Notes: generated by a model not told the origin, from the letters alone. 64,000 nt of DNA from Candidatus Multivoradales bacterium (GCA_965248925.1 CBDFLE010000006.1:2496001-2560000), one strand, 5' to 3'. Positions 4,026 through 49,310 are shown, counted from the first letter of the stretch. Program-made: numbers and translations.

Positions 4026-5938
4026 GACTTACGCCTTTGCCACCACTCGTGCAAACGCCAAGCACGGCTGGCACGCATGGTCTCCAAGATGCTACCGAGA
4101 CGCTCGATCTCACCATAGGTGCGGCCCAGATGCCCGCCCTGGTCATCGATCTTGGCCCGCAACTCGGCGATTTCCCGAGCGCCGGCGCGCAGCTCCTGGT
4201 CTCGCGTCCGGACCTCTCGATCACGGCGGTGTAGCTCGCGCTCGTGGGCGCGCAGCTCTTGCTTGAGCTTCCCCACCTCGTCGACCAGGCTGTGGTTGTG
4301 GATTTCGAGGTGGTCGGCTCTACCCTGCTGTTCCTCTCCCTGGCGGCTGGCTTGGCGCAACTGCTCTCGCAAGCGGCCGGCGGACTCCGCTTCGGTCACC
4401 GCCTCAGCCCGCAAGCGGTCGACAACCCGAGCGATGAGCTGACCGTCGTGATGCTCGGCATGCTTGCTCACCACCCGCGCTTTGACTTGCAGAAAATCAG
4501 CCCGCTGACGGGGTTGATCGGCCAGGATATGGTGGCCGGCACCGCGGAAATGACGGTACTCGCAAGTTACCCGTGGGCAGTGATGAAAAGGGGTCTGCCG
4601 CGCCAAACGGATCAACAGATCCCAGTCTTCGAAGAACGGCAGAGAAGTATCCAGCGGCCCAACCTGGTCGAGCAGGCGGCGTTCGATCAACAGGGTGTTG
4701 AAGGGGATATAGTTGTCGAACAGCAGCAGATCGCCATCGAAATCACGGCTGTAGGGCAACCGGCGCTGGCGACAGACCCAGCCGGAGCCCGCTTGCGGCT
4801 CGCCGGATAGCTCATACACCCCCACCGCCGCATCAGTGTAGGCCACCCGCACTCCAGCCCCCGCCACCAAAGCCGCCAGCACCGCCAGGTGCTCGGACTC
4901 CACCAGGTCGTCGTCATCGAGAAAGGCGATGTACTCACCCTTCGCCACCTCGATTCCAGCATTGGCTGCGGCGGCGCGCCCTCCCTGCCGTGGCAAGTCA
5001 ACCCGGCGCAGCTCAAGCGGATAGTCGGCCGGCAACTCGGGAGGCTCGCCGGCATCGTTGACCACCACTACCTCGACCCGGCGATAGGTGCTGGCCGCCA
5101 AACTGGCCAACGCCTGGTCCAGCAGCTCGGGTCGATTGCGCGTGCGTACCACCACCGACAGCCGAGGGCCCTGATCGACGGCCGTATACTCCGGCGTACC
5201 ACCCAGCTCGGTGACCAGACGACCATGACCCGAAGTTTCGAAATCTGCCGCTGAAAGCTCACGATAAGCCTCCACCGCCGGATGGCCAGGCGCCAGACTC
5301 AAACCACGGAAACGCAGCAGTCCGAGGCAAGCACCCAGGTAGTCGTGACGCTGCTGCTGGCTGACGTAACAAGCCATCGCTTGCTCGATTTGCGGCAGCT
5401 GCGCACCAACATCGATCAGCAAATCCGGATAGAGAGGCTGATTGACCTCGTAGGTGAGCACCCTCAAAGATCTGGCCACCACGGCCAAGAGATTGGGAGA
5501 ACGGGTCCCACTGAGCAGGTGGTGTACCGCCGCGAACGCCGCCCGGTGGTCAGCGCTGACCTCGAGGGGTGAAGTCACTAGCAGTAACTCGGGTCGCTGA
5601 CTGAGCAAGGCGCGGCGAATCCCCGCCTGCAACTCTTCGAGGTGCTGCTCCAAAGCGCCATCGGGCAGCAATAGCTCGTCAAAACCGGCGACGCCTAGCA
5701 CCTCAAGGGCGCGGCGAGCCTCTGCCTGGCGCTGTTCGACATAGTCTTGGCGGGCGGCTGGCGTCGCCCCGTGACCGCCGTCGGCAAGGAACAACACCCG
5801 CACCACCGCTCCAGCTGCGCTCAGCTGCGCCACCAACCCACCACAGCCCAGCACTTCATCGTCATAGTGGGGAGCAAGCACCAAGGCGCTCCGCGCATGG
5901 ACCTCAGCGGTCTTTCCCGGGGGCGAGAAGGGGCTCAT
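4022..5938 (-). CDS. PIG-L/LmbE de-N-acetylase - GT2 - coiled-coil fusion
   Basis: 'APHYDDEVLGCGG' and 'ADHRAA' (PIG-L), 'IAFLDDDD' and 'FEDWDL' (GT2), C-terminal coiled coil ending 'SRAWRL'. Confidence 0.88.
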   Translation of the reverse strand: MSPFSPPGKTAEVHARSALVLAPHYDDEVLGCGGLVAQLSAAGAVVRVLFLADGGHGATPAARQDYVEQRQAEARRALEVLGVAGFDELLLPDGALEQHLEELQAGIRRALLSQRPELLLVTSPLEVSADHRAAFAAVHHLLSGTRSPNLLAVVARSLRVLTYEVNQPLYPDLLIDVGAQLPQIEQAMACYVSQQQRHDYLGACLGLLRFRGLSLAPGHPAVEAYRELSAADFETSGHGRLVTELGGTPEYTAVDQGPRLSVVVRTRNRPELLDQALASLAASTYRRVEVVVVNDAGEPPELPADYPLELRRVDLPRQGGRAAAANAGIEVAKGEYIAFLDDDDLVESEHLAVLAALVAGAGVRVAYTDAAVGVYELSGEPQAGSGWVCRQRRLPYSRDFDGDLLLFDNYIPFNTLLIERRLLDQVGPLDTSLPFFEDWDLLIRLARQTPFHHCPRVTCEYRHFRGAGHHILADQPRQRADFLQVKARVVSKHAEHHDGQLIARVVDRLRAEAVTEAESAGRLREQLRQASRQGEEQQGRADHLEIHNHSLVDEVGKLKQELRAHERELHRRDREVRTRDQELRAGAREIAELRAKIDDQGGHLGRTYGEIERLGSILETMRASRAWRLHEWWQRRKS

Positions 5939-6199
5939 AGGGTAGTAGAGGGATGGCGAGCGGAACTGGGCCTTGGAAGTGACGAACGGTTAGCGCCTAG
6001 AATCGCGGCAGCGCACCAAACTGTAGATGATCAATGACTCGCCCGAGTATACCCTTACGGGGTGACGGCCGAACAGCGACCGCCGAACGGTAGTGGCCTA
6101 AGACTGTGTGGGCGGTGTGAGACTTGTCGATGAGAATCCATCGCGCTCCGCAGTTGCAGCCACGAAGCGTTCGAGTGAACACGCTGTTTGATTCCCCAC

Positions 6200-6410
6200 A
6201 ACACCCTAGAAGGGTTACAAGTGCTTCAGTCTCCCTGCAAGAAGACCGCCGGGCACCCTGTGGTTATGCCCCGTTCCCTAGCGTGAACGGTGGGGCTGTT
6301 TCCGGCCACGCCTCACGAGGTTGCCCACATGAGACGAACCCGCGGGTTTCGCGAGTCTCCTCATCAGGAGCCCTCCTTTCAGCGCTGCGCCCCTCGATTG
6401 GGGCACTAAG
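6200..6410 (-). ncRNA. Candidate structured RNA in element A
   Basis: Consecutive minus-strand hairpins: GCCCC-aatcga-GGGGC, CTCC-tgatga-GGAG, GAGAC..GTCTC, CCGTTC..GAACGG, GTCT..cttgcagg..AGAC. No convincing ORF. Confidence 0.4.
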
Positions 6411-6471
6411 ACTCTACTACGGCCCACCGAGCGCGCTATTCATCCTCCTGTAGAATTCTCCGCACCACCAC

Positions 6472-6524
6472 GGCGCGGCTAGGTTAGCCACCAAGCACCG
6501 GGCACCCGCCCCGGCCGTCGCGCC
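6472..6524 (+). repeat. Conserved GC-rich stem-loop, copy 1
   Basis: GGCGCGGCTAGGT...CCGGG...CCCGG..GTCGCGCC, preceded by TAGAATTCTC as in the other copies. Confidence 0.7.
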
Positions 6525-6552
6525 CCTCAACCGGGAGCATCACGGGGGATGC

Positions 6553-7192
6553 TTGGCGAATCGGAACAAGTACAGCGAGCACGAGCTGTGGCAGGTCGTC
6601 GAGTTGATCCATAAAGGCTTCGACATCCGAGCTGCTGCGCGTGAGGTCGGCGGCTGGAATGGCCAACAAGGGAGACCTCAAGAGATACGAACGGCGTCTC
6701 CGCAAGGCGTACTATCGGCGGAGAGCTACCGGCTCACTCTCCCTAGAAGACCCTAAGTGGTCTTCTCAAGAAGAGGCTATTCGGAGATCGTTCAGAGCCA
6801 ATGACAGCCATCGTACAAAGTGTCTTGAACAGATGGCGAGAGCTGAACGATGGCGAGAGCTGAACGTGAAGCGGCTGAGATCGGCTTCTCGCTGGAAGGC
6901 GCAGAAAAAATTCTGTAGCAATCTCTATACCGAGAGCTTGAGTCCTACACCGATCTCGTAAACGCAAGCCCAAGCGGCACAGCAGAGACGATGTTGAACA
7001 GCGAGGCGTCTGCCGAAGATGGCATCCGCCGACTTCGTGAGGCTCGTGTGGGGGCCCGCTAGCCTCACAGAGAAGATTCGGATCCTGTCGGCCTACCTCG
7101 AAGCCAAGCGCTACGTAGGTGCTGTTAGCGGGAAAAATTCCTCCACAGCTAATGGGGAACAAGTTCCAGGGCTTGGAGAAGAATCAGCCTAA
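6553..7192 (+). pseudogene. Frameshifted hypothetical gene with N-terminal HTH-like segment
   Basis: RBS GGGGGA. Protein-like text (MANRNKYSEHELWQVVELI.., ..KRYERRLRKAYY.., ..LTEKIRILSAYLEAK..) spread over successive frames. Confidence 0.45.
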
Positions 7193-7250
7193 GCCGGGGA
7201 ACAATTCCTGTTTGCCGGGGACAAATCCCGGCATCGCCAGGGACAAGCCT
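7154..7250 (+). repeat. Four phased RGGGA(A)CAA boxes
   Basis: Boxes start at 7154, 7196, 7217 and 7239 (spacing 42/21/22 bp). Confidence 0.65.
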
Positions 7251-7321
7251 GTTGAGGTAGCCGCGCAAGCTCTTTGATTACAGCAATTAGGTTTTACAGG
7301 GCATCTTGGTGTGGCGTAGAA

Positions 7322-7360
7322 CTAGAAAGCCGTAGCGATTAGAGCGCTACGGCTTTCTAG
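7322..7360. repeat. Perfect 16-bp inverted repeat
   Basis: CTAGAAAGCCGTAGCG-attagag-CGCTACGGCTTTCTAG. Confidence 0.85.
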
Positions 7361-7570
7361 AACCCAGGTGCAAGCACCGCACGAGGTTCCAGCAGGAATA
7401 GCCTACTCTGTGGCGGAGCTGTGCCGCAACCCCAAGAGGGTGAAGCATGGCCGACTGGAAGAGCATCAGAACGCGGCAACGGTGGCGGGTCTGGTGGCCC
7501 TTGCTGCCGCGTTCCTGGATACCGCCCGGCGGCAGTTGCCGGGTCCGACCCCCGCCTCTGTCGCCAGCCC

Positions 7571-7744
7571 TCACTCCTCAGCAGAATCGATCTTCAGCGC
7601 CCGCGCTTTCTCCAGGGCCGCCGAGATCATGTAGCTCGTCCGGTTGAGCCCGAGTATCTCGGCCGCTTCGTCAATCCGCTCGATCTGCTCGTCTGAGCAC
7701 CAGAGCTGCACTTTCTTTGTCTTCTTGGCTTTCTCTCCACTCAT
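7571..7744 (-). CDS. Ribbon-helix-helix repressor, 57 aa (below ORF-track cutoff)
   Basis: Translated by hand: MSGEKAKKTKKVQLWCSDEQIERIDEAAEILGLNRTSYMISAALEKARALKIDSAEE. Beta-helix-G-helix pattern, divergent from the element A transposase. Confidence 0.8.
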   Translation of the reverse strand: MSGEKAKKTKKVQLWCSDEQIERIDEAAEILGLNRTSYMISAALEKARALKIDSAEE

Positions 7745-7857
7745 GAGCACCAGATTACTCCCAAGAGACTCCTGGGGTCAACCTGAATTACTCCTATTCG
7801 GAGTATAAACCTGCCTAAATGGTTGAGAGATACTCCTGCGAGAAGTCAATTAGGATC
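7745..7857. promoter_or_regulatory. Divergent rhh/tnp promoter region of element A with ACTCC boxes
   Basis: Minus-strand TTGACC-N18-TAATCT. ACTCC at 7757, 7768, 7790, 7832 and inverted GGAGT at 7800. Confidence 0.65.
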
Positions 7858-8228
7858 GTGGAACGGCAGCCCACAACCCAATCGGCGATCGAGCCGCCTA
7901 CCTGCCCGCACTGCGGCGCGGGTTGGGTGCGTTAGGGCAAAGATCGGGACGGGCACCAGCGCTACAAGTGCATTTGAATCTCCGGATGCGCATGCGCCGC
8001 TTGACTCGGTTGACTGCCTGCACCGACGGAAACCGACCACCGATTCCGATTGAAAGTGACCAGTGATTCCAACGGAATCTGACCATCGATTCCGATCGAA
8101 AGTGACCACTTTTCCGGGTCGATCGGAATGGGTGGTCAGATTGGATCGGAATCCTGGCCACGGCGGAGTTCGACGGTAGCGCGCTCCTCACAATTGGGGT
8201 ATTCCAGCCTCCTTGAAAGGAGGATTGG

Positions 8229-9803
8229 ATGCCGAGAGTGAGGACATCGATGCGCAAGATACGCGAGGTACTGAGACTGAAATGGCAGCATGGCCTGTCG
8301 CACCGCCAGATCGGACGGTCGGTTCGGCTGGGCCACGGGACGGTGTGCAGCTACCTGCTGCGAGCCAAGGTTGAAGGCCTGAGCTGGGAGCAAGTAGCAG
8401 CTTTGAGCGACGCTGAGCTGGAGCAACGCCTGTACCCTCGGCCGCAGCCGCTTCGGAGGGGTGGTCAGCGAGCCTTGCCCGACTGGACCAAGGTGCATGG
8501 CGAGCTGAAGAAGAAGTGCGTAACCCTGTCGCTGCTGTGGCAGGAGTACCGGGAGGACCATCCTGACGGCTACGGTCTCAGCCGCTTCTGTCAGCTGTAC
8601 CGGATCTGGGAAGGGCGCCTGGATGTGTGCCTGCGCCAAGCCTACCGGGCGGGCGAGAAGCTGTTCGTCGACTATGCCGGACAGACCGTGAGGGTGATCG
8701 ACCCGGCGACTGGCAAAGAGCGCGAAGCGCAGATCTTCGTGGCGGTGCTGGGGGCGAGCAACTACACCTATGCCGAAGCAACGTGGAGCCAGGGCCTGGA
8801 GGACTGGATCGGCTCTCATGTGCGGACCTTCGCGGCTCTGGGCGGGGTGAGCGAGCTGGTGGTGCCGGACAATCTGAAGAGCGGCGTGACCAGCCCGTGC
8901 CGCTACGAGCCGGAGATCAATCGCACCTACGCGGAGTTGGCCGAGCACTACGGCGTGGCGGTGGTGCCGGCGCGGGTGAGGAAGCCCCAAGACAAGGCGA
9001 AGGTCGAAAACGGTGTATTGCAAGTGGAGCGCTGGATTCTGGCCCGGCTGCGTAACCAGCAGTTCTTCAGCCTGCGAGAGCTCAACGAGAGCATCGCGAA
9101 GCTTCTGGTCGAGCTTAACGACCGTCCGCTGAAGGTGTTGGGCGTCTCGCGCCGAGCGCTGTTCGAGCAGGTCGATCGTCCTGCTCTGGGTGCTTTGCCG
9201 CTCCAGCCCTACGAGCTTGCCGAATGGAAGAAGGTACGCGTTGCCCCGGACTACCACGTCGAGTTCGAGGGCCACTATTACAGTGTGCCGTACCAGCTGA
9301 TCAAGAAGCAGCTCGATCTGCGGGCGACGGCGCAACTGGTGGAGGTGCTCGATCGCGGCAAGCGTGTGGCTGCTCATCGTCGCAATCGGTGTCGGGGTCG
9401 GCACACGACCCAGAGCGAGCACATGCCCAAAGCGCACCAGGCGTACCTGGAGTGGACACCGACACGGCTGATCAGCTGGGCGGCGAAAACAGGCCAGGCG
9501 ACGGCCGAACTGGTGGAGACCATCATGCTTAACCGCTCCCATCCTCAGCACGGCTTTCGCTCGTGTCTGGGGCTGATGCGCCTGGGCAAGACCTATGGTG
9601 CCAATCGTTTGGAGGCTGCGTGCCGCCGCGCGCTCGCCATTCACGGCCTGTCCTACAAGAGCGTGAAGTCGATCCTGAAGAGCGGCCTGGACCAGCAAGC
9701 AGCGCCCGAGCCCACCGAAGTGACGGCGCCGATCGAGCACCGCAACGTCCGCGGCGCCAGCTACTACAGTGCCGCGCGCCGCGAGGAGACGCCGCCATGC
9801 TGA
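8229..9803 (+). CDS. istA: IS21 transposase IstA
   Basis: 'GEKLFVDYAG', 'VVPDNLKSGV', 'PQDKAKVE..V..VERWILA.LR'. Confidence 0.96.
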   Translation: MPRVRTSMRKIREVLRLKWQHGLSHRQIGRSVRLGHGTVCSYLLRAKVEGLSWEQVAALSDAELEQRLYPRPQPLRRGGQRALPDWTKVHGELKKKCVTLSLLWQEYREDHPDGYGLSRFCQLYRIWEGRLDVCLRQAYRAGEKLFVDYAGQTVRVIDPATGKEREAQIFVAVLGASNYTYAEATWSQGLEDWIGSHVRTFAALGGVSELVVPDNLKSGVTSPCRYEPEINRTYAELAEHYGVAVVPARVRKPQDKAKVENGVLQVERWILARLRNQQFFSLRELNESIAKLLVELNDRPLKVLGVSRRALFEQVDRPALGALPLQPYELAEWKKVRVAPDYHVEFEGHYYSVPYQLIKKQLDLRATAQLVEVLDRGKRVAAHRRNRCRGRHTTQSEHMPKAHQAYLEWTPTRLISWAAKTGQATAELVETIMLNRSHPQHGFRSCLGLMRLGKTYGANRLEAACRRALAIHGLSYKSVKSILKSGLDQQAAPEPTEVTAPIEHRNVRGASYYSAARREETPPC

Positions 9804-10561
9804 GGCACGCGACGCTCGATCAACTCGCCGCGCTCAAGCTCCACGGTATGGCCAAAGCCTTTGAGGAGCAGCTGTCGATGGTCGATGTCTCAGAGCTCTC
9901 CTTCGAAGAGCGCCTCGGGCTGCTGGTCGAGCGCGAAGCGACCGAGCGATCCAGCCGCCGCTTGATAGCGCGGTTGCGAAAAGCCAAGCTGCGCGAGCAG
10001 GCGGCCATCGAAGACATCGACTGGCGAGCCAAGAGGGGCCTGGACAAAGGCCAGATCCTGCGCCTGGCCTCGTGCCAGTGGATCGCCGAGCATCTCAACG
10101 TGCTGATCACCGGCAAGGCCGGGGTGGGCAAGACCTTTCTCGCCTGCGCCTTCGCGCACAAGGCATGTCGGGAGGGTTACACCGCTTTGTACCTGCGGGT
10201 GCCGAGGCTGTTTCGCCAGCTCGCCATCGCGCGGGGTGATGGTAGCTACGAGAAGCTGCTCAAGAGCTATGCTCGCACAGACCTGCTCATCCTCGACGAC
10301 TGGGGGCTGGCGCCGATCGGGGCCAGCGAGCGGCGCGACCTGCTCGAGATTCTTGAGGACCGCTACGGCAACCGCTCCACGCTGGTGACCTCCCAGCTAC
10401 CGGTTGAGAGCTGGTACGAGGTCATCGGCGATCCGACCTTGGCCGACGCCATCCTCGATCGCATTGTCCACGGCGCCTACAAGCTCGCGGTGGACGGTGA
10501 CTCCATGCGGGCGAAGAGAGCCGGCGGTATTCGCAAGGCCGCCCAGCGAGAGGCAAGGTGA
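9797..10561 (+). CDS. istB: IS21 helper ATPase IstB
   Basis: Walker A GKAGVGKT, 'LLILDDWG', 'ADAILDRIVH'. ATG overlaps the istA end. Confidence 0.96.
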   Translation: MLRHATLDQLAALKLHGMAKAFEEQLSMVDVSELSFEERLGLLVEREATERSSRRLIARLRKAKLREQAAIEDIDWRAKRGLDKGQILRLASCQWIAEHLNVLITGKAGVGKTFLACAFAHKACREGYTALYLRVPRLFRQLAIARGDGSYEKLLKSYARTDLLILDDWGLAPIGASERRDLLEILEDRYGNRSTLVTSQLPVESWYEVIGDPTLADAILDRIVHGAYKLAVDGDSMRAKRAGGIRKAAQREAR

Positions 10562-11094
10562 GATCCAAGAGCATGCTGAAGCGATCGCCGATCCGGACCC
10601 ATCAGCGGGCCTGCGGCCCGATCCGGACCCGACCCAAGATGGACTGTGGAAGCTGCCGCGGTTGTGGAAATCGCTCTGCGATTCCCACAACCGCTTGGAA
10701 AACGCCCCCCGGCCACCCACCCGCGTTTCCCACAGCTACGCACAGCCCCGACGACGGGTTATTTGAATACAATCAACCAAGAAGAAGAGCCGGAAGGAGG
10801 GCTCCAGCTACAGCGAAAGTGGACACTTACAACTGAGGAGAGCGCGAGCGTCGCTTCGCTCCGACAAGTGGTCGGTTTCGATCGGAATGGCTGGTCAGTT
10901 TCGTCGGAATAGGCAGTTGACGAACGGATTCAGCAAGAAATGGGCGAACCTCCGGGCAGCTGTGGCGCTGGAGATGGCGCACCACAACCTGTGCCGGATT
11001 CACGGTGCGATCCACTGCACCCCCGCGATGGCTGCCGGGATCTGCAAAGGCATCTGGTCGGTGGGCGATCTGGTGACGGCGTGAAGCCGCGAAG

Positions 11095-11463
11095 CTAAAC
11101 GGAGCTGCTCGGGAAAATGTACTTTGCTACCACCACGAATAGAGCAATGATGTTCACCGTTGTAGTGGCGAGCGCGGCTATTAGTACGGGGTCTGAAAGG
11201 TAGAACCCGAGGCAGTTGCCGAAGCCCTGAAAAAACAGCAGCACGACCATCGCAAGGAGCCAAAAACATAGGAGGCCATATAGCAGTGCTGCATATAGCT
11301 TCCGGTGGCCGATGTTCTGGGTGAGTTCGTCAACCAGCGCTTGTCGGTGATCGCGATCTAGATCGTCCTCCCACTCGCGGGTCTTCGCATCTGGCTGCGC
11401 CGCGGGCTCGGTTCGGTCTTCCTGCCCAATGTCCTTAATTGAGGGGCGACGATCCTCAGTCAT
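11095..11463 (-). CDS. Two-TM protein, putative toxin partner of the Panacea antitoxin
   Basis: Overlaps the antitoxin stop. Charged N-terminus plus two hydrophobic helices. Confidence 0.65.
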   Translation of the reverse strand: MTEDRRPSIKDIGQEDRTEPAAQPDAKTREWEDDLDRDHRQALVDELTQNIGHRKLYAALLYGLLCFWLLAMVVLLFFQGFGNCLGFYLSDPVLIAALATTTVNIIALFVVVAKYIFPSSSV

Positions 11464-11944
11464 GGCGTACTAGCTCGCGGAAGTGTCTCGCTATCAACTG
11501 ATTGTTGATCCGCTTGTTGTTGCGGCCCCGCCCTTCTTTCCAGGTCTGATCCCACGGAGTCCCGTCCTGGTGTGTCAGGTTGGAGAGCTGAACGCCTGTG
11601 TACTTGCTGTAAGCCTCCAAGACCTTGTCGAGCAACTCTTGGACTTGATTGTCGTCGTAGGCAACACTTGGGACAGAGATCTCGCCAAATCGACGAACGA
11701 TCGCCTCATTCTCGACAACAGGAGCATTGCCGTGCCTCTTGAACGCTTGGTAAAGACTCGGGATAACTGGCCCGTACTTCCACGCCTGGACGGGCTCGTC
11801 AATTAGGGCGATATCGAAGATTGCCAGGTGCCAGCCATGCGCTATGTAGACGAGCTTCTGGATCTTGAGATGATCCAAGACCTTCCCGGACATATTGGCC
11901 TTGTCGATGAAGTAGTTGGCTACAGCGAGTGCTGGATACTGCAT
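11456..11944 (-). CDS. Panacea/DUF4065 (GepA/SocA-like) antitoxin
   Basis: 'VANYFI', 'LKIQKLVYIAHGWHL', 'QAWKYGPVIPSLY', 'LSNLTH..GTPW'. Confidence 0.9.
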   Translation of the reverse strand: MQYPALAVANYFIDKANMSGKVLDHLKIQKLVYIAHGWHLAIFDIALIDEPVQAWKYGPVIPSLYQAFKRHGNAPVVENEAIVRRFGEISVPSVAYDDNQVQELLDKVLEAYSKYTGVQLSNLTHQDGTPWDQTWKEGRGRNNKRINNQLIARHFRELVRHD

Positions 11945-12082
11945 GCTTACGCCTCCTTTACGCCATCCTATAACGGCGATTCGCTGATGGCAATGGGGAA
12001 AGATCGCGCCATTACGTGAGGTACCCTAGCAGCCTTGTCAAGTGCGGGCCGTGGGATGAGCGGGCCGATCGGACAGCGAACC

Positions 12083-12140
12083 GGCGCGGCGGGCCGAGGT
12101 ACGGGGAGCCCGGCGTTCGGCGGCCAGACCTAGCCGCACC
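12083..12140 (-). repeat. Conserved GC-rich stem-loop, copy 2 (after element A radC stop)
   Basis: rc GGTGCGGCTAGGTCTGGCCGCCGAACGCCGGG...CTCGGCCCGCCGCGCC. Confidence 0.8.
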
Positions 12141-12148
12141 TGAGAATT

Positions 12149-12529
12149 CTACCAGCTACCGCGCCGGGACAGCGAAACCCAGCGTCCAGCCGATCCCGCG
12201 ATCACATGATCCACAAGCTCGATGCCGATCAGCTCGGCGGCTCGCGCCATTCGGCGGGTGAAGATCAAGTCTTCCTTGCTCGGCGACGGGTCGCCGCTGG
12301 GGTGGGTGTGGAACAGCAGCAGCGCCGTAGCCTGGTGGTGTAGCGCCTCAGCGAAGACCGGCCGCGGGTCGGCTGCTGCTCGGATCGCCGTCCCGCGGAA
12401 GATCTCGCGTTCAGCGATCAGCCAATGCCGGCAGTCGAGGAACAGCACGCCCACCACTTCCTGGCCGAGCCCACCGTAGTGCAGCAGCGCGTATTCGGCC
12501 ACAGTGCCCGGAACATCGAGCAGCCTACC
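12149..12529 (-). pseudogene. radC: 3' half of element A radC (JAB domain), interrupted by element B
   Basis: 'QEVVGVLFLD', 'HTHPSGDPSPSKED'. Begins exactly at the element B TSD. Confidence 0.9.
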
Positions 12530-12698
12530 GGTGGTGTCCTAACAGTGTGTTGGTCCGATAGGGGCGGGTGAAAGGCAGGCTGGCGGGTGGTACGTTCGCC
12601 GCGAAGCCGAGGCGGTGAACGTCTCCACCTTACCACCCAGCGGCTCTGACGGCGGCGGTAACCGACGCCAGAGCCTAGCCACGCAGAGGACATAGCCA

Positions 12699-12989
12699 AT
12701 GCGAGACCGCCGTAAGTGTACCGTCTACGACGTGCAGAGAGAGCTTGCTGCTCTCGTTCCAAACCTACAGACCGTTGACCTCCGACTAGCCCGGATCGCC
12801 CGCGCGGTTCAGCCATCGCCACATCTCCTACCCGTAGAGCTTCGCGGCCGGGTCGAAGCCGTGCGCTCCGATTTGATCGGCGACGCCATCGCGACGCTGG
12901 CCGAGCTTTCCCAGCTCACTGAAGACGACGCGGCGCGCCACCGGGTGCAGCTCCTCGACCTGGCTTTGAGGCTGGCCGATGCAAAGTAA
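12699..12989 (+). CDS. Small helical protein coupled to radC
   Basis: Near-identical paralog at 17904-18197. RBS AGAGGA, overlaps the radC start. Confidence 0.8.
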   Translation: MRDRRKCTVYDVQRELAALVPNLQTVDLRLARIARAVQPSPHLLPVELRGRVEAVRSDLIGDAIATLAELSQLTEDDAARHRVQLLDLALRLADAK

Positions 12990-13626
12990 CCTACGGCCGC
13001 GCGACCGGCTGCTACGCCACGGCGCAGCCGGCCTGACGGATGCTGAGCTGCTGGCGGTGCTATTGAGGTACCGTTCGGCAGAGAAGGCGGCAGAGCGTCT
13101 CCTGTCGGCTGCTGGTGGTCTGAGAGGGCTACTGCGCGCCGCGCGGCCAGTCTTGTGCCGCAACGGTGCCACTGAGGGCAGAGCAGCTGTGGTACTGGCC
13201 GCTGGCGAGCTTATGCGGCGGCTGGCAGAGCATCAGCTCGACCGCCGCAGGCTGCTCGATCAGCCGATAGCCCTGGCCGAGTATGTAGCAATGAAGTACA
13301 GCGAGCTTGGCCAAGAGGTTCTTGGCGCGATCTACCTCGATTGCCGTCACCGGCTGATTGCCGAGCGAGAGATCTTCCGCGGCACAGCTACCCGAGCAGC
13401 GGCTGAGCCTGGGCCGATCTTGCGAGAAGCGCTCCAGCACCACGCCGCGAAGCTGATCATTTTTCACACCCACCCCAGCGGCGACCCATCGCCGAGCAAC
13501 GAGGATCTGCTCTTCACCGAGAGGATGGCGAAGGCCAGCGAATTGATTGGCGTCAAGCTGGTGGACCACTTGATTGTTGGAGCGCTCGGCCGCTGGGTGT
13601 CCCTGTCCCGGCGTGGTAGCTGGTAG
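12979..13626 (+). CDS. radC: RadC/JAB (UPF0758) family protein
   Basis: 'RPRDRLLRHGAAGLTDAELLAVLL', intact JAMM motif E..HTHPSGDPSPSNED, 'LVDHLIV'. Confidence 0.94.
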   Translation: MQSNLRPRDRLLRHGAAGLTDAELLAVLLRYRSAEKAAERLLSAAGGLRGLLRAARPVLCRNGATEGRAAVVLAAGELMRRLAEHQLDRRRLLDQPIALAEYVAMKYSELGQEVLGAIYLDCRHRLIAEREIFRGTATRAAAEPGPILREALQHHAAKLIIFHTHPSGDPSPSNEDLLFTERMAKASELIGVKLVDHLIVGALGRWVSLSRRGSW

Positions 13627-13634
13627 GATTCTCG

Positions 13635-13692
13635 GGCGCGGCTAGGTCTGGCCGCCGAACGCCGGGCACCCCGTTGCTCGGCCCGCCGCGCC
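13635..13692 (+). repeat. Conserved GC-rich stem-loop, copy 3 (after element B radC stop)
   Basis: GGCGCGGCTAGGTCTGGCCGCCGAACGCCGGG...CTCGGCCCGCCGCGCC. Confidence 0.8.
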
Positions 13693-13722
13693 ATCATCCC
13701 TCCTCTCAGATCGTCTAGATTC

Positions 13723-14802
13723 TCAATTCTTCGGTTTCGCTGTTGGCATCATCATCGTATCTCCATATCTTGGCAATGCGCGGTTGATCCGGTTTTCGAA
13801 ATCTTCCCAATCATTGTCTTCACACGTCTTCATGATGACGATCAAGTTCGTGAGCTGATCTCGCAACTCTTGAATTCCGAAATCTGGTGAAAGGCTCTGA
13901 AACAGCTTGCGCGACCTGCGCCCTTTTGGATTCTTAGGGGTCAACTTCTTTAGCGCCTTCAAAACGCCGGGTGCCAGACGCGAGTAAACAATGTTGTTGG
14001 TAACGTGGCCAATCCACTGAGGCCGCTTCCCGCCAATGCTTGGGTACGACAGGCCCTTGAGTCGAAACACCTGTTTATAGAATTCGTCTGGGAATCGCTT
14101 TGTCCACTTCGAGTACTCGTCCGTTAGGTACTTGTCGAGGATAGCCTGAAGAGCTAGCCGATCTCGAACGTCCTGGTATCCGGTCGCTTCATCAACGAGG
14201 GCGTCGATACCAGTCTTGGCGAGTGATCTGATTAGTGCCTCTGCCTTCTGCGCCTTGCCGAGTTGCTGTTCTTGAAGCTCTCCGGCTGCGCGAGCTTCAA
14301 GCCACACTTCGCACACGTCAACCAAGATGGAGGCTTCGTACCCCTTGACTATCTTCTTTCCATGAACGTATTCAATAGGATTCAGGGGCCCGGCCATTAA
14401 ATGGCTGGGAATAAAAGACTTAAGCCTAGCAGGAGCCAGAAACAACGGGACAAGGGCCCGGCCATCCGATGCCGCTTTGAGCCGCTTCGAAGCGCCGCTA
14501 CGACCACCCAGAATGGCTCTTGTAATCCCGTGTTCAGACAGCACACGGCGGACCGTATTTTCGTTTCCGCTCTCGCCTTCGATAACAGCGCATGGCAATA
14601 TTGTTCCACCGAGGTCAATCGATGCCGCGTAGTTCGAGAGAACGCGCGGCAAACTATCTGGAGGGTCCTCTTGGTCCCATCTTGCGCGTGCAGCATTCGA
14701 AGCCTGCGCAGATCTTTCTTCTGGTGACATCTTCTCCGCCCTCGCGTATCCACCGATAGCCCTTCCCGTTGGTCCTTCAGTTGGCATTTGCAAGCACTCC
14801 AT
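13723..14802 (-). CDS. P63C-domain protein (phage/MGE associated; start may be 14787)
   Basis: 'LAKTGIDALVDEATGYQ', 'W.KRFPDEFYKQ.FRL', 'GHVTNNIVYSRLAPGVL'. N-terminal 'GGYARAEKMSPEERS...AARARW'. Confidence 0.88.
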   Translation of the reverse strand: MECLQMPTEGPTGRAIGGYARAEKMSPEERSAQASNAARARWDQEDPPDSLPRVLSNYAASIDLGGTILPCAVIEGESGNENTVRRVLSEHGITRAILGGRSGASKRLKAASDGRALVPLFLAPARLKSFIPSHLMAGPLNPIEYVHGKKIVKGYEASILVDVCEVWLEARAAGELQEQQLGKAQKAEALIRSLAKTGIDALVDEATGYQDVRDRLALQAILDKYLTDEYSKWTKRFPDEFYKQVFRLKGLSYPSIGGKRPQWIGHVTNNIVYSRLAPGVLKALKKLTPKNPKGRRSRKLFQSLSPDFGIQELRDQLTNLIVIMKTCEDNDWEDFENRINRALPRYGDTMMMPTAKPKN

Positions 14803-14886: not shown

Positions 14887-15876
14887 TTATGCCGCCACCA
14901 GATCACCGACCGACCAGATCCCTTTGCAGAGGTTAGCCGCCATCGCTGGCGTGCAGCGGATCGCGCCGTGGATGCGGCAGAAGTTGTGGTGCGCCATCTC
15001 AAGCGCTACGGCTGCCCGCAGGTTCGCCCACTTCTTGGAGAACCCGTTGGTCAACCGCGTCAGACGGCGCATCCTCATGCGGAGGTTGAGATTCTGTCGC
15101 TCGATGTGCGACGTGCAGATCTGCTTGCGATCAGGCTTGCCGTGGATGGCCCGCTTCTCGGAGGCTATTATCGTCGCCGGTGAGTACCGGCGCTGGTCCT
15201 CTGAAGAGCCTTTGCCGTAGTGCTTGACTACCTGGCCATACTGAACGCGGGTGCCGAGCTGGTGAACGATGGGATCAGCATAGCTGTCGAGCCCGTCCGT
15301 GCTGAGCTGGAATTCGCCCTTCGTCGCGCGGTCGAGCTTGCCGATGAAGAACGAGGTATCGAGCGCCGTGCGGTGGCCCAGGTGATGAGCCAAGATCAGC
15401 TTGCTCTCGCGCTCGATCGCCACGTAGGTCCAGGCATCGCCGATCTCTGGATCGCTGAGACTCTTGAATCTCTTCGTCTTGGCCTTCATCCCGACGAATC
15501 CCCAGATTTCGTCAGCCTGCACGTCCTTGACCTCGACATCTCGCACGATCCGCGCGAGCAGGCTTTCGCACTTGCCACCGACTACGCGGAGCAGGCGGCA
15601 GATCGTGTCCCGATGGACGCCAGTCACGCGCTCAGCAGCGCGAATGCTCATGCCTTCGACCAGCAGCGAGACAACCGTGGTGGCCTTCTCCACCGGTAGC
15701 CGCATCGTGCCCAGCGGACGACGCGGGCGAACGGCGAAGGTCTTGCGGCAGCTCGCGCCTTTGCACTTGTAGCGCTGGTGCCCGTCGCGGTCTTTGCCCC
15801 AACGCACGAAGCCTGCCCCGCAATGGGGACAAGTCGTCGGCTCGATCGCCGGTTGGGGTTGGGGCCGCGTCGTCAT
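14887..15876 (-). CDS. IS1-family single-ORF DDE transposase
   Basis: Zn ribbon CPHC..C..C, HTH 'GMSIRAAERVTGV', 'QADEIW', 'STDG', 'IERQNL..R..RRLTR.TNGFSK', 'TPAMAA'. Confidence 0.92.
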   Translation of the reverse strand: MTTRPQPQPAIEPTTCPHCGAGFVRWGKDRDGHQRYKCKGASCRKTFAVRPRRPLGTMRLPVEKATTVVSLLVEGMSIRAAERVTGVHRDTICRLLRVVGGKCESLLARIVRDVEVKDVQADEIWGFVGMKAKTKRFKSLSDPEIGDAWTYVAIERESKLILAHHLGHRTALDTSFFIGKLDRATKGEFQLSTDGLDSYADPIVHQLGTRVQYGQVVKHYGKGSSEDQRRYSPATIIASEKRAIHGKPDRKQICTSHIERQNLNLRMRMRRLTRLTNGFSKKWANLRAAVALEMAHHNFCRIHGAIRCTPAMAANLCKGIWSVGDLVAA

Positions 15877-15950
15877 GTGATGAGTATATCCAATGGATAT
15901 CCATAGTGTCAAGGGTTGACTTGGATATTTTTTGGATATATTCTGGATAC
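15877..15950. promoter_or_regulatory. Back-to-back tnp/rhh promoters with TGGATA boxes
   Basis: Minus TTGACA-N18-TATACT, plus TTGACT-N17-TATTCT. TGGATA at 15922/15933/15944 and palindrome TGGATATCCA at 15894. Confidence 0.8.
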
Positions 15951-17638: not shown

Positions 17639-17917
17639 AGCCTACCGGCGATCCAGCCGGTAGGCTGCCAACCGCCGCACAAGCTCACCAGCGGCCAGGA
17701 GGACGGCAGCTCTGCCGTCTGTAGCACTGTTCCGCCGTAGCGCCGGCCGTTCGCTGCGCAGCAGCCCTTGCAACCCACCAGCAGCCGTCAAGAGCCGCTC
17801 TGCCGCGTTCTCAGCAGCTCGGCGGCGCAGCAACACCGACAACAGCTCAGCGTCCGTCAGACCAGCCGCGCCATGCCGTAGCAACCGGGCCCGCGGCGCA
17901 AGCTCAGCCCTCGGAAT
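17639..17917 (-). pseudogene. radC: 5' half of element A radC
   Basis: 'RLLRHGAAGLTDAELLSVLL...LAAYRLDRR' ends at the element B TSD. Confidence 0.9.
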
Positions 17918-18197
17918 CGGCCAGCCGTAGCGACAGGTCGAGCAGCTGCACTCGATGGCACAGCGCGTCCTCTTCGGTCAGTTGCGACAGCTCTTCTAGC
18001 GTCGCGATGGCGTCGCCGAGCAGATCGACGCGCACCGCCTCCGCTCGGCCACGGAGCTCGACCGGCAAAAGGTGCGGGGATGGCTGGATCGCCTTAGCGA
18101 TCCTGGCTAGACGAAGGTCAACGGTCTGTAGGTTGGGGACGAGAGCAGCAAGCTCTCTCTGCACGTTGTAGACGGTACACTTCCGGCGGTCGCGCAT
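17904..18197 (-). CDS. Small helical protein coupled to radC (element A copy)
   Basis: Paralog of 12699-12989 with a conserved ~170-bp leader back to the TIR. Confidence 0.8.
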   Translation of the reverse strand: MRDRRKCTVYNVQRELAALVPNLQTVDLRLARIAKAIQPSPHLLPVELRGRAEAVRVDLLGDAIATLEELSQLTEEDALCHRVQLLDLSLRLADSEG

Positions 18198-18422
18198 TGG
18201 GCTGTGTCCTCTGCGTGGCTAGGCTTCGGCGACGGTGACAGCCGTCGTCGAGGTCGCTGGTGGTAGGGTGGAGGGCGTTCGCTGCCCGGGCTTCGCGGCA
18301 AACGTACTACCCGCCCGCCTGCCGCTCACCCGCCCCTATCGGACCAACACACTGTCAGGACACCACCCGCCGAACAGCAACCAGCACCCGGCGAGCTGGG
18401 CAGGCGCGGATTTGGAGACCTC

Positions 18423-22164: not shown

Positions 22165-23496
22165 TCAGCGAGGAGGAATCGTCCCCGTTTCGGTGATCAG
22201 CGGGTTGAGATCATCGCAAGCCGAGGTCAGCGCAACCGCCGCATAGCCGACCTGGAAGAGGCCCTTGGCGTTGTGCACCACGGTGACAAAGCTCTGGGCG
22301 ATGTTGCCATCGACGCCGAAATCGACATCGAAATTCACCCCAACATCATCGATGTTGAGATTGAGGAACATCCAGCCTGACTGGTAGGGCAGGGTCAGGT
22401 CCCCTTCGCCGACCTCCACCCGCTGAGTTTCGAGGGGGAAACATGGCGGATCGACATTGGGATCGGGCGGTGAGATCACCCCACCCCCCAAGTTGAAGCA
22501 GATTTCCACCGCGTTCTCTTGTTCGTCAAAGGCCACCGCTTCGGTCTCGTTGAGGGGGTACCACGACGGTCCGACTCCGCAGCTGTAGAACTGCTGCGTG
22601 TCCGAGGTGGTCGAGTCGCGCCACACCAAGAGGCCGGTTCCGCCGTCGACCACCACATTTTCCAAATAGCGCGCCGCCCAAGTGGTGCCCAAGGGCTCGC
22701 GATTGTCGGCGCCCGTCATGCCGGGATCGTAGCGTCCGTAGAAGGTGACCCCACTGGCCGTCGAGCCGGCATTGAAGAAGTCATCGGCCTCGATCGACAC
22801 CAAAGTATCGCCGATCGCCGAGGCATTCAGCTGATTGATGATGAAGTAGTCGCCCCACAGCAAGTTGCGATTGTTGGCAATGCCAGTGCCGCCGTCGACG
22901 AAGTAGCCGGTCTCGTTGGGAAACACCGTCGAGCATTGATTGACACTGTCAATGGTGAGGTAGCCGCGCGCTAAACCGTCGCCATGATCCTGGCCCATGC
23001 AACCCAATCCGAGCACATCCTGGCCGGTGTGGCCATTGCGCAAGCGGGTCAGATTGGCAGTGCTGACCACTGGGTTGTTGAAGGGCAGAATTCCCAGGCA
23101 ACCCGGAAAACTGCCGTCCCAGGAGGGGTTCAGTCCATGCGGGCTAATGCTGTCGGCGCCATCGTTCTGCGCGTCCGCGGTGACCGGCAGATTGCCTTGA
23201 AAGACATCGTAGAGGTTCACCGGCACTACGTCGTAGCCCGACAGGAAGACATCAAAATCGATGGTTGGCTGCGTCCAGTCGGTCCACAGAGTGACATGTG
23301 CTAAAGCCGGGGTCGCGGAGGCATTGTTGATCGTGAATAGAGTGGTAATCCCGGCCTGGTCGGCGATATCGACCTCGAAGTATGGCAGCAGCAAGGTGGC
23401 TGCCGGGACACTGTCCAGGGTACAGAGCTCGGCCTGCAAAGTGGCGCTGCCCACCAAGAACAGCAGGGCGGCCAAAACCAGAATCTTCTTCAGCAT
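22165..23496 (-). CDS. Secreted S-layer-like protein, paralog 2
   Basis: Signal peptide, 'CTLDSVPAATLLLPYFEVD', acidic. Full-length paralog of 29794-31140. Confidence 0.7.
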   Translation of the reverse strand: MLKKILVLAALLFLVGSATLQAELCTLDSVPAATLLLPYFEVDIADQAGITTLFTINNASATPALAHVTLWTDWTQPTIDFDVFLSGYDVVPVNLYDVFQGNLPVTADAQNDGADSISPHGLNPSWDGSFPGCLGILPFNNPVVSTANLTRLRNGHTGQDVLGLGCMGQDHGDGLARGYLTIDSVNQCSTVFPNETGYFVDGGTGIANNRNLLWGDYFIINQLNASAIGDTLVSIEADDFFNAGSTASGVTFYGRYDPGMTGADNREPLGTTWAARYLENVVVDGGTGLLVWRDSTTSDTQQFYSCGVGPSWYPLNETEAVAFDEQENAVEICFNLGGGVISPPDPNVDPPCFPLETQRVEVGEGDLTLPYQSGWMFLNLNIDDVGVNFDVDFGVDGNIAQSFVTVVHNAKGLFQVGYAAVALTSACDDLNPLITETGTIPPR

Positions 23497-23608
23497 CGCG
23501 GAATCCTCCATCGGCGCCACCAGGCTAGTTCAACCACCGTGGCGACCCTCGACCGGGATTAATAAGAGAGACATGCCTAATTTAACATACTTGAATAGGT
23601 TGGTGTTA

Positions 23609-25415: not shown

Positions 25416-26636
25416 CTACCGTGTGACCTCACGAACCTGCCGGACCCAAGTATGCTCGATCTCGAACAATCCGGCGCGCAATTTCCGGCTTTCGACCCTG
25501 AACGCTCCGGTGAGCTGCTGCGTGTCGTAGATGTGCAGACCAGCCTCGTCGAGTAGGAACACCACCAAGGTGAACTCGCCGTGGTTGATCTTCAGCTGCG
25601 GCAACTGCAGCAGATGCCGATACTCACGGCTTCCGCTGAGCGGCTCGAGCCCATCCCAATGGGTCGAGAAGCCACAAACTTGAACGCCGTCGAGTCGCTC
25701 GACGGAAACTCCGACATGGAAGGCCAGCTCAGGATTCTCGGTATGCCAGCGAATAGCCAATCGCCAGGGTTCGCCGCTCTGGTAAACAGCCCCCAGGCGC
25801 TCCCTCCCAGGTTGGCTGACTTCTACCAACTTGGCCGGCGCCACCGCGCCTTCGCTGAGTTCCGGAGTGCTGGCGCCCACAACTTCCCCGGCATTGCGCC
25901 GTTCGCCGCCACGGCCGATCAGGTAGCTGTCGTATTCGCGGATGATCAGCTCAGCCGACCCATATCCCGCCGGCTCGCCACCGCGCAACCACAGCGCATG
26001 CTGGCAAAAGGCGGCGATGTGGTACATCGAGTGGGAGCAGAAGACTAACGTTCGCCCGCCATCGAGAAAGGCCCGGATACGGTCGACACACTTCTTCTGA
26101 AAATAGCCATCGCCTACCGACAGCGCCTCGTCAATGATCAGGATTTCAGGGTCGACTTGGATCGCGATCGAGAAGCCCAACCGCATAACCATGCCGGTGG
26201 AGTAGGTCTTGACCGGCCGGTCGATAAACTCACCGAGTTCACTGAAGGCAATAATCTCGGGCTCAGCTGCCGCGACTTGGTCTTCAGATAAACCCAGCAC
26301 CGCCGCGTTGAGGCGGATGTTCTGCCGGCCACTGAACTCCGGATGAAAACCCATCCCGAGTTCGAGTAACGAAGCCACTTTGCCGGCGACCGTCAGCGTA
26401 CCGGTGGTTGGCGGTGTAACCCCCGCCAGTATCCGCAGGAGGGTGCTCTTGCCGGCGCCGTTCTCACCGATCAGCCCCAGGCTCTGACCCCGCAAGACCT
26501 CGAAGTCGATACCCTGCAAGGCTTCGAACACTTGGTGCCGAGCACGGCCGCCGAGCATTTCGCGCAGCCGATCCCAGGGGCTGTCGTAGAGCCGATAGGT
26601 CTTGCCGAGGTTCTCGGCGGCGATCAGAACGGTCAT
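25416..26636 (-). CDS. wzt: Polysaccharide ABC transporter ATPase with C-terminal carbohydrate-binding module
   Basis: 'GENGAGKST', 'PVKTYSTGM', 'IIDEALSVGD', plus a Wzt_C-like extension. Confidence 0.92.
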   Translation of the reverse strand: MTVLIAAENLGKTYRLYDSPWDRLREMLGGRARHQVFEALQGIDFEVLRGQSLGLIGENGAGKSTLLRILAGVTPPTTGTLTVAGKVASLLELGMGFHPEFSGRQNIRLNAAVLGLSEDQVAAAEPEIIAFSELGEFIDRPVKTYSTGMVMRLGFSIAIQVDPEILIIDEALSVGDGYFQKKCVDRIRAFLDGGRTLVFCSHSMYHIAAFCQHALWLRGGEPAGYGSAELIIREYDSYLIGRGGERRNAGEVVGASTPELSEGAVAPAKLVEVSQPGRERLGAVYQSGEPWRLAIRWHTENPELAFHVGVSVERLDGVQVCGFSTHWDGLEPLSGSREYRHLLQLPQLKINHGEFTLVVFLLDEAGLHIYDTQQLTGAFRVESRKLRAGLFEIEHTWVRQVREVTR

Positions 26637-29793: not shown

Positions 29794-31140
29794 CTAGTTT
29801 GCGCTGGGAATCACGCCAGTATCGGTGATCAACGGGTTGACATCGTCGCAGGCCGAGGTCAGCGGCAACGCCGAGTAGCCGACCTGGAACAGGCCAAGGG
29901 CACTGATCGTGGTCGTCACATGGCTCTGAGCCAACGAACCGTCGGAACCGAAGTCGACGTCGAAGGCGACGCCAATGTCGTCGATGTTCAAGTTCAAGAA
30001 CATCCAACCCGACTCATACGGAAGGGCCAGGTTGCCGTCGCCTACCGTCGCCCGCTGGGTCTCCAGCGGGAAGCACGGCGGATCCACGTCCGGGTCCGGA
30101 GGCGAAATCACGCCGCCACCCAGGTTGAAGCAGATCTCCACTGCGTTCTCCTGCTCGTCGAACGCCACAACCTCGGTCTCGTTCAGCGGGTTCCACGACG
30201 GGCCAGCACCAGGGCCAGAGCCACAGGCGTAGAACTGCTGGGTGTCAGAGGTCGTCGAGTCACGCCACACCAAGAGGTCGGTACCACCGGTGAAACCAGC
30301 GTTCTCGATGTAACGAGTCGCCCAGGTGGTGGCCAACGGCTCGCGGTTATCCGAGCCGGTCAGGCCTGGATCGTAGCGACCGTAGAAGGTGTAACCGGTA
30401 GGCGTCGAGGCGGCGTTGAACTGCGGATCGGCCTCAATCGCCACCAACGGCTCACCGAAGGAGAAGGCGTTGACCTGGTCGACAATGTAGTAATCGCCCC
30501 ACAGCTCGTTGATGTCGTTGGCAATGCCGACGCCGCCGTCTACGAAGTAGCCGGTCTCGTTCGGGAACACCGTCGAACACTGGTTGACGTTGTCGATCGT
30601 GATGTAACCACGAGCGATGGCGTCACTGTGATCCTCGCCCATGCAGCCCAGACCCAGCACGTCCTGGCCGGTGTGGCCATTCTGCAAACGGGTCAGGTTG
30701 GCCGAGGAAACCACCGGGTTGTTGAACGGGAATACGCCCAAGCAACCAGGGAAGCTACCGTCCCACTGCGGGTTCAAGCCGTGCGGGCTGATCAAGTCGG
30801 CGCCGTCGTTCTGGGCATCGGCCGTGACCGGCAGGTTGCCCTGGAAGACGTCGAACAAGTTAACCGGCACGATGTCGTAGCCAGTGAGGAAAACGTCGAA
30901 GTCGATCGTCGGCTGGGTCCAATCGGTCCACAGCGTGACGTGAGCCAGCGCCGGAGCGGCTGACGCGTTGTTGATCGTGAACAGCGTGGTGGTACCCGCC
31001 GCGTTTGTGTAGTCCACCTCGAAATAGGGCAACAGCAAGGTCGCCGCCGGCACGTTGTCGATCGTGCACAGATCAGCGAAGGCCTGGCCGCCTAAAGCGA
31101 GGAGACTAGCCACTAGAAGGACTAGAACTATCTTTTTCAT
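29794..31140 (-). CDS. Secreted S-layer-like protein, paralog 1
   Basis: Signal peptide MKKIVL..AFA, 'CTIDNVPAATLLLPYFEVD', long structured leader, own terminator. Confidence 0.72.
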   Translation of the reverse strand: MKKIVLVLLVASLLALGGQAFADLCTIDNVPAATLLLPYFEVDYTNAAGTTTLFTINNASAAPALAHVTLWTDWTQPTIDFDVFLTGYDIVPVNLFDVFQGNLPVTADAQNDGADLISPHGLNPQWDGSFPGCLGVFPFNNPVVSSANLTRLQNGHTGQDVLGLGCMGEDHSDAIARGYITIDNVNQCSTVFPNETGYFVDGGVGIANDINELWGDYYIVDQVNAFSFGEPLVAIEADPQFNAASTPTGYTFYGRYDPGLTGSDNREPLATTWATRYIENAGFTGGTDLLVWRDSTTSDTQQFYACGSGPGAGPSWNPLNETEVVAFDEQENAVEICFNLGGGVISPPDPDVDPPCFPLETQRATVGDGNLALPYESGWMFLNLNIDDIGVAFDVDFGSDGSLAQSHVTTTISALGLFQVGYSALPLTSACDDVNPLITDTGVIPSAN

Positions 31141-48737: not shown

Positions 48738-49310
48738 TCATGTTTCCTCCAGACACATCTCGATCTTCTGTATTGACTCCTCGAATATCTGCAACACATT
48801 TCCGTTTGCGTACTCAGGATCCCCCCAGAACGCCCCGCCCTCAGCACTAGGATCAGGCGCTGAGAAAAGCCAGTATCGCTCCTCTGCTCCACTCGTCGAC
48901 CAGATCTCATAGACCACGTTAGGGAAATAAATAGTCCCGCTCACTGCCAGTGGAAGCGCAAGTGAGTGCAACGCTATCTCGACTGCCTGAAGAGCCGGGC
49001 AAGTCGCTTCTGTAATCTCAGATGAACGCAAGGAACCGCCTTGATGTCGGAATATTATCGCAGTAGTAACTCCATCCTTTTCGAAGAGACTCACTTGTAT
49101 CGAAACCTGCGACTCGCCCCCCCTCTTAATAGTTACTGCCGACTCTCTGGTCCGGAAAAATCCAATCTCTTCCTCCGGACGACTCCAGCCAGAAGGCCGG
49201 CGATCTGTCGATGTAGTGTTCACAGGAGAAATTCCCGGCGTCGTCAAGCTGGGACAGGATAGTGCCGAAAACGCCAACGTTACGTAGAGCACGAGCCTCA
49301 TCAATTTCAC
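48738..49310 (-). CDS. Putative immunity lipoprotein for orphan Rhs
   Basis: GTGA overlap with the Rhs stop, 'MRLVLYVTLAFSALSC' lipobox-like, visibly lower GC. Confidence 0.65.
   Translation of the reverse strand: MKLMRLVLYVTLAFSALSCPSLTTPGISPVNTTSTDRRPSGWSRPEEEIGFFRTRESAVTIKRGGESQVSIQVSLFEKDGVTTAIIFRHQGGSLRSSEITEATCPALQAVEIALHSLALPLAVSGTIYFPNVVYEIWSTSGAEERYWLFSAPDPSAEGGAFWGDPEYANGNVLQIFEESIQKIEMCLEET

Follow-up and report, generated by a model that had tools for sequence, protein, structure and literature searches.

Candidate divergent int-alpA RNAs, three of four joined to radC-like gene ends, in a Candidatus Multivoradales genome

A conserved, hairpin-forming motif of 53-58 nucleotides (nt) recurs three times within a 64,000-nt stretch of a Candidatus Multivoradales bacterium genome (GCA_965248925.1 CBDFLE010000006.1:2496001-2560000; hereafter the window), where it raises the question of whether a sequence located at the point where similarity between repeated units ends is a DNA site for the exchange of mobile cargo or encodes a structured RNA. 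An earlier note, written from the sequence alone, had left these two possibilities side by side, naming an attC- or REP-like (repetitive extragenic palindromic) single-strand hairpin and a structured RNA element. The comparative analysis presented here favors the latter: we consider it likely that the copies are divergent int-alpA RNAs, transcribed from a -10-type box, that this RNA serves as a translational leader in most homologues, and that the junction alone has been kept in the window.

All three copies lie where they had been placed previously (Table 1), and the pattern GGYGCGGCTAGGT, searched exactly, has three matches in the 64-kb window, all at the copies. Blastn against the whole 7.98-Mb assembly adds a single further copy (G000:C6:134479-134536, minus strand; hereafter the fourth copy), and the same total of four is returned by R1, our own covariance model made from the four genome copies, with scores of 66.7, 83.7 and 89.9 bits for copies 1, 2 and 3. 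Of the fold proposed earlier, the 8-base-pair (bp) outer stem (P1) and the 5-6-bp inner stem (P3) are borne out, while the single stem-loop is not: a third short helix (P2, GGU...RCC) had been overlooked between the two stems, and the fold is therefore a three-way junction, whose conserved joints read CUAG, GAA(A/C) and CC in the Rfam consensus. The claim that variant positions retain pairing through G-U on one strand only holds as well, with 31 G-U against 6 A-C cells in an alignment of 32 sequences, so that the functional strand is the one named in that note; likewise, no T-run follows P1 in copies 1-3 and no terminator-like site is called there, in agreement with the reported absence of a U-tract.

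The evidence for this structure comes from its homologues. With R1, the motif was detected in 26 of 100 related genomes at 1-4 matches each, in a patchy distribution over 7 of the 12 families of the order, and the hits from this genome and its relatives constitute the 32-sequence set. A separate pattern scan of species-representative genomes, from which 80 of 110 stretches were taken, yielded 44 stretches confirmed by the model at E<=0.001, the remaining 36 of the 80 being treated as chance matches or as too divergent. A broader set of 70 distinct homologues left out L034 (30.7 bits, badly aligned) and five loci with a core identical to that of a relative's locus. Standard pairs occupy 95.3% of the cells in the 32-sequence set, compared to 34-50% with slid partners, and double changes are found at 9 of the 17 pairs (2.9±1.1 in shuffles). 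Among the 70 homologues the corresponding values are 95.5% of 1154 pair cells, compared to 37-43% with slid partners, and changes on both sides at 10 of the 17 pairs, a count reached by none of 500 shuffles (4.1±1.3); all six pairs of P3 covary. These data argue that the P1/P2/P3 three-way junction is kept by covariation.

The identity of the motif emerged only on permissive Rfam scanning, as nothing is reported at the copies at the gathering threshold. All four copies then match RF02996 (int-alpA RNA) on the strands given here and over model positions 1-71, scoring 32.8 bits for copy 1, 27.2 for copy 3, 20.6 for copy 2 and 19.7 for the fourth copy. In the scan of 5900-14000 at E<=10, the sole other Rfam match at the copies is mir-433 (E=9.9, opposite strand within copy 2), and no ribozyme family appears there; a tRNA-like reading was also set aside, as an ARAGORN search of the window is negative for tRNA and tmRNA. 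When RF02996 was run against 20 relatives' loci found by R1, 6 passed the family cut-off (36.0-42.7 bits), 9 scored 28.3-34.7 bits and 5 had no match at E<=0.1. Since the relatives' scores span the cut-off, the window copies grade into the curated family, and the four copies are most likely divergent members of int-alpA, short of the cut-off itself. The family is reportedly among the candidates that Weinberg et al. 2017 put forward; it was described from Proteobacteria, and integrase and AlpA genes are presumably the neighbors that gave it its name. Rfam types RF02996 as 'Gene; sRNA' (small RNA), and no functional study of int-alpA or RF02996 was found in the literature searched. The motif goes unnamed in the main text of Weinberg et al. 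2017 (PMC5737381), and in the passages of other publications that contain the term, int-alpA denotes a gene order or an item in a list, without functional data.

Each copy is preceded by the box TAGRATTCTC described earlier, which occurs in exact form three times in the window, solely at the copies, and with up to one mismatch eight times, compared to 3.67 expected matches. The box is separated from the motif by 1 nt in copies 2 and 3 and by 11 nt in copy 1, and is preceded by TG in copies 2 and 3 and in the fourth copy. Its TAG also terminates, at copy 1, an open reading frame (ORF, 6124-6453) that may not be a gene, as it has no Pfam match and falls outside the list of ORFs with a third-codon-position G+C content (GC3) above 0.72. 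Within 30 nt upstream of the motif, TANNNT is found in 59 of the 70 homologues, compared to 5 in the next 30 nt, and the specific hexamer TAGAAT in 34, compared to none beyond; the distance from the end of the hexamer to P1 ranges between 5 and 23 nt, most commonly about 7 nt, and the variation of the hexamer among homologues resembles that of a -10 hexamer. From these features we infer that the box may be a promoter from which an RNA would start at or just before P1.

Further insight into what such an RNA might do comes from the sequences that follow it elsewhere. In relatives and in other phyla alike, P1 is followed by a pyrimidine-rich tract, two tandem G-rich repeats whose flanks pair into a small hairpin, and a start codon, the start of a co-oriented ORF lying about 10-46 nt from the motif in most relatives. 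Complementarity links the P3 loop to the G-rich repeats, and loop and repeats change together between homologues: the best helix between the loop and its own downstream 48 nt has a mean score of 18.1, compared to 13.9±0.42 upon permutation of the partners, with none of 2000 permutations reaching the observed value. Two or more loop-complementary sites are present in 56 of the 66 homologues outside this genome, the first about 10-16 nt and the second about 22-31 nt after P1, the latter at the ribosome-binding region. The downstream genes themselves are diverse: among 63 ORFs scanned, 8 carry Trans_reg_dom and/or RovC_DNA-bd domains, a single ORF encodes an IS1-family transposase, another shows a weak sub-threshold match and the remaining 53 belong to no Pfam family.

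These observations are consistent with a model in which a three-way-junction RNA of roughly 55-60 nt would travel with small modules of mobile or foreign genes and be transcribed from the -10-type box (TAGAAT/TAGGAT) 5-20 nt upstream. In most homologues the junction would head the 5' leader of whichever gene follows, and its P3 loop could pair alternatively with a decoy or with the ribosome-binding site, thereby controlling translation. The window would keep the junction only, copies 2 and 3 having lost the platform of tandem repeats, probably through scrambling of the region mediated by insertion sequences (IS). Behind copy 1, tandem G-rich repeats that include a hairpin (Table 1) may correspond to the decoy and ribosome-binding platform of the relatives, which they resemble; a 67-amino-acid (aa) ORF without Pfam match runs from a TTG at 6553 to 6756.

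Several results weigh against this model and define how far it can be read. Folding energies of the copies are not better than those of shuffles (z from -1.8 to +0.5), and the three-way junction is the predicted minimum-energy fold in copy 3 only; the support for the structure is comparative, not thermodynamic. The alignments behind the pair counts were themselves fitted to the model, and in 39 of the 70 sequences the search pattern fixes most of P1 and the junction, the invariance of P1 being there by construction. All four genome copies score under the RF02996 gathering cut-off of 35.8 bits, and the name-giving genes are missing, with no Phage_integrase or AlpA Pfam domain among the selected ORFs of the window or around the fourth copy, and no integrase or AlpA in the ORFs scanned from 13 relatives' 18-kb contexts or among the 63 downstream ORFs. 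A simple sigma-70 scan, which requires a -35 hexamer, calls no promoter at the three boxes, and the SocA-like gene downstream of copy 2 has a promoter-like site of its own (11993-11965) between the copy and the gene. Finally, no loop-complementary site of at least 5 bp is found downstream of any of the three window copies, with a single weak one behind the fourth copy, so that the proposed switch is not readable from the window copies.

The copies confirmed by the model among the species-representative genomes belong to records titled Thermoanaerobaculia/Acidobacteriota, Planctomycetia, Gemmatimonadota and Alpha- and Gammaproteobacteria. At these 44 loci (numbered within L051-L130), the words of P1 and of the junction are letter-identical across the titled groups, words that the selection pattern itself required. 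Such identity points to horizontal spread, together with a presumably sequence-specific recognition of the junction. A bolder proposal, which we regard as quite improbable, is that the near-invariant junction (P1, CUAGG, CCGAA) acts as a sensor for a universal cellular factor or small molecule and sets how freshly acquired mobile genes are translated in at least six phyla; here, platform-less behind radC, it would act in trans or as a 58-nt patch of shared homology for module swaps.

A first alternative to a leader function builds on the radC-like genes of this genome. The junction might instead be a trans-acting sRNA, with its C-rich P3 loop directed at G-rich ribosome-binding regions elsewhere, or a structured and protective 3' end of radC mRNA, and although we hold this to be unlikely, the local arrangement lends it some weight. 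Copies 2 and 3 and the fourth copy, whose radC-like gene (C6:~134.5-135.2 kb) has its stop codon within the box, all sit 8 nt past a radC stop codon and have no platform; no co-oriented gene stands behind copy 3; copy 2 shares 87-91% identity with the other two radC-linked copies over box and motif, compared to 69-72% over the preceding 375 nt of radC; and the sRNA typing of the family in Rfam would be in line with such a role. Upstream radC is however limited, by tblastn, to this genome and the same-family relative L018, and the motif accompanies just 3 of about 12 radC-like hits in this genome. Fusion to radC therefore marks a local lineage rather than the family as a whole, and RadC as a general partner of the motif is rejected. 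The two-site platform next to a start codon in most homologues outside this genome also speaks for a leader, and a genome search for complements of the P3 loop returned thousands of short, scattered and uninterpretable matches.

Flanking similarity bears on the second alternative, in which the motif would function as DNA, either as an attC-like single-strand hairpin for recombination or by terminating a mobile unit whose downstream 'cargo' is swapped at that point. The earlier observation that similarity stops right after the motif proved accurate for the radC-linked copies, whose high-scoring segment pairs (HSPs) stop between -2 and +2 nt relative to the final base of P1, with unrelated genes thereafter: similarity among the three reaches 360-400 nt upstream through radC, and identity amounts to 87-91% in box and motif, 69-89% in the 375 nt before them and 24-33% in the 100 nt that follow. 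This sharp boundary would suit a DNA site, as would the strand-asymmetric, G-T-tolerant pairing, which a folded DNA strand could equally display, and the presence of IS1-family transposase genes, which stand close behind the gene downstream of the motif in 5 of 13 contexts, right behind the motif itself in L114, and occur twice in the window. In most homologues, however, similarity continues 30-50 nt past P1 into the leader. Among the 925 of 2415 homologue pairs that have an HSP over the core, 872 lose similarity within 30 nt on the upstream side and 911 within 50 nt on the downstream side. The leader thus appears as a conserved island between unrelated flanks, as a portable leader would give, which is no demonstration of recombination at the motif.

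Further points render a DNA-level function very improbable. Pfam scans of selected window ORFs, of ORFs from the 13 18-kb contexts and of the surroundings of the fourth copy contain no integrase or other recombinase; the copies are isolated, without cassette arrays; no inverted repeat joins the motif to an IS end; and the -10-like box, taken together with a downstream start codon and ribosome-binding complement that change in step with the P3 loop, fits an RNA only. Of the two functions first considered, the structured RNA element is the one that stands, on the full-length Rfam match, the covariation among 70 homologues, the box, and the ribosome-binding region and start codon of the relatives, and the attC/REP-like cargo-exchange site is the one that lacks support, with four copies in the genome and no integrase in the scans above. 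As to a genome-wide REP-type repeat, which the note had itself considered, or an unconventional terminator of radC transcription, some appeal comes from the GC-rich outer stem, which immediately follows a stop codon in three of the four copies, and from the pyrimidine-rich tract after P1 in relatives, but these readings are scarcely credible given only 4 copies in 7.98 Mb, by which a REP is already largely refuted, the lack of a T-run or terminator-like call, an upstream gene other than radC in 27 of 28 relatives' loci, and conserved junction nucleotides and P2/P3 covariation for which a terminator has no need.

Table 1. Coordinates of the RNA motif copies, their upstream boxes and neighboring features, counted from the first nucleotide of the window
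Feature	Coordinates	Strand	Remarks
Copy 1	6472-6524	+	53-nt three-way junction
Copy 1 helices	P1 6472-6479/6517-6524; P2 6482-6484/6490-6492; P3 6498-6502/6510-6514	+	
Box TAGAATTCTC of copy 1	6451-6460	+	TAGAAT -10-like hexamer 15 nt before motif
Tandem G-rich repeats after copy 1	6531-6553	+	Hairpin 6536-6541/6548-6553, read by eye
Copy 2	12083-12140	-	58-nt three-way junction
Box TAGAATTCTC of copy 2	12142-12151	-	TG before it; TAG (12151-12149) is the radC-like stop codon
Copy 3	13635-13692	+	58-nt three-way junction
Copy 3 helices	P1 13635-13642/13685-13692; P2 13645-13647/13654-13656; P3 13661-13666/13677-13682	+	
Box TAGGATTCTC of copy 3	13624-13633	+	TG before it; TAG is the radC stop codon
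radC-like JAB-domain gene, C-terminal part	12149-12538	-	Pfam RadC PF04002, E=9e-34; ends in copy 2 box
Full radC-like gene, UPF0758 N-terminal and RadC JAB	12979-13626	+	Pfam RadC, E=2.3e-34; ends in copy 3 box
Truncated third radC	17642-17884	-	Without JAB domain, without RNA motif
SocA/Panacea antitoxin-like gene	11456-11944	-	PF13274, E=4.6e-20; 139 nt downstream of copy 2
P63C-domain gene	13723-14802	-	Pfam P63C; converges on copy 3
IS21 element	8075-10902		40-nt inverted ends 8075-8114 and 10863-10902; istA 8229-9803; IstB domain in 9563-10561
Second IS1-family transposase gene	14887-15912	-	

The surroundings of the copies are those of a region reworked by mobile elements. Between 6 and 18.4 kb the window consists of scrambled mobile DNA inside a glycosyltransferase cluster, in which the IS21 element splits one IS1-family copy (7866-11084). 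This copy and the second one (14887-15912) are inverted relative to each other and bracket both radC-junction units and their downstream genes, in a composite-transposon-like arrangement. An inverted duplication, 75-89% identical, relates 12530-13247 to 17646-18367 and takes in the N-terminal part of radC together with the region upstream of it. The SocA/Panacea-like gene overlaps a 122-aa ORF (11095-11463, minus strand) that has a weak DUF5422 match only, and the two (11095-11944) possibly form a toxin-antitoxin pair, as 'cargo' behind copy 2. Outside this genome, an IS1-family transposase recurs in L043, L044, L045, L047 and L050, about 0.1-1.5 kb past the motif's downstream gene, and in L114 the transposase gene (462-1283) starts 63 nt after P1, with the leader platform missing; the possibility that the motif is the end of an IS1-family element was rejected, as no terminal inverted repeats link them.

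Around the fourth copy, a 241-aa ORF without family match begins 13 nt after the motif (G000:C6:133741-134466, minus strand; L161 9241-9966). Its GC3 is 0.61, compared to 0.72-0.81 in its neighbors, and together with radC it makes up a small foreign islet between peptidase S9 and glycosyltransferase genes. Elsewhere in the window, a match to the Rfam model group II intron D1-D4-6, over the cut-off at 79.4 bits (52002-52103, minus strand), lies between two RHS-repeat genes (49307-52012 and 52681-57189) that share a 300-nt repeat (50349-50648 and 53705-54004). Two paralogous genes of ~450 aa (22165-23520 and 29794-31140, minus strand), without Pfam family and 74-83% identical in DNA over about 700 nt, sit in a glycan-export cluster with a Wzt-like ABC ATPase (25416-26636) and an ABC-2 permease (33448-34218).

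Overall, an apparent 'boundary marker' becomes a named but unexplained RNA family, one that comes with its own -10-like box and in most members with a loop matching both a decoy and the ribosome-binding region, and whose range extends well beyond Proteobacteria. What is new here is this spread of the family, together with a radC-fused, platform-less lineage in which the junction is joined to radC-like gene ends and the platform has been lost. Such platform-less copies could help to separate the role of the junction from that of the platform, and in genome annotation sites of this kind should not be labeled as recombination sites or terminators.

Comparison with known systems places the motif closest to int-alpA RF02996, with which it shares the 8-bp GC-rich outer helix, the CUAG junction, the short P2 hairpin, the GAA(A/C) linker, the P3 hairpin and the CC closing junction, and whose cut-off is exceeded by relatives from the same order. 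The genome copies differ from that family in the fusion of three of the four to radC-like 3' gene ends, in lacking the P3-loop-complementary downstream sites of most homologues, save for the single weak one at the fourth copy, and in having, for those of the window, no integrase or AlpA gene nearby. Their host, probably an acidobacterium, differs as well, the titled records with the best scores being those that bear the labels Thermoanaerobaculia or Acidobacteriota. Leader RNAs that mask the ribosome-binding site, such as translational riboswitches and RNA thermometers, offer a functional parallel, as the C-rich loop of the homologues could take either a decoy or the G-rich ribosome-binding region before a start codon as its pairing partner; in contrast to these systems, no ligand, protein or temperature signal is known for int-alpA homologues, the genes behind the leader are diverse and mostly without known family, and the window copies have no platform. 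Integron attC sites likewise form imperfect, strand-asymmetric hairpins at a boundary between conserved and variable DNA, but here there is neither an integron integrase nor a cassette array, the copies number four only, and the fold is a three-way junction rather than a simple bulged hairpin, flanked by promoter-like and ribosome-binding features. REPs and bacterial interspersed mosaic elements (BIMEs), finally, resemble the motif as GC-rich palindromic sequences just past stop codons, but whereas REPs number in the tens to hundreds per genome, the motif has four copies here and spans phyla with near-identical junction sequence.

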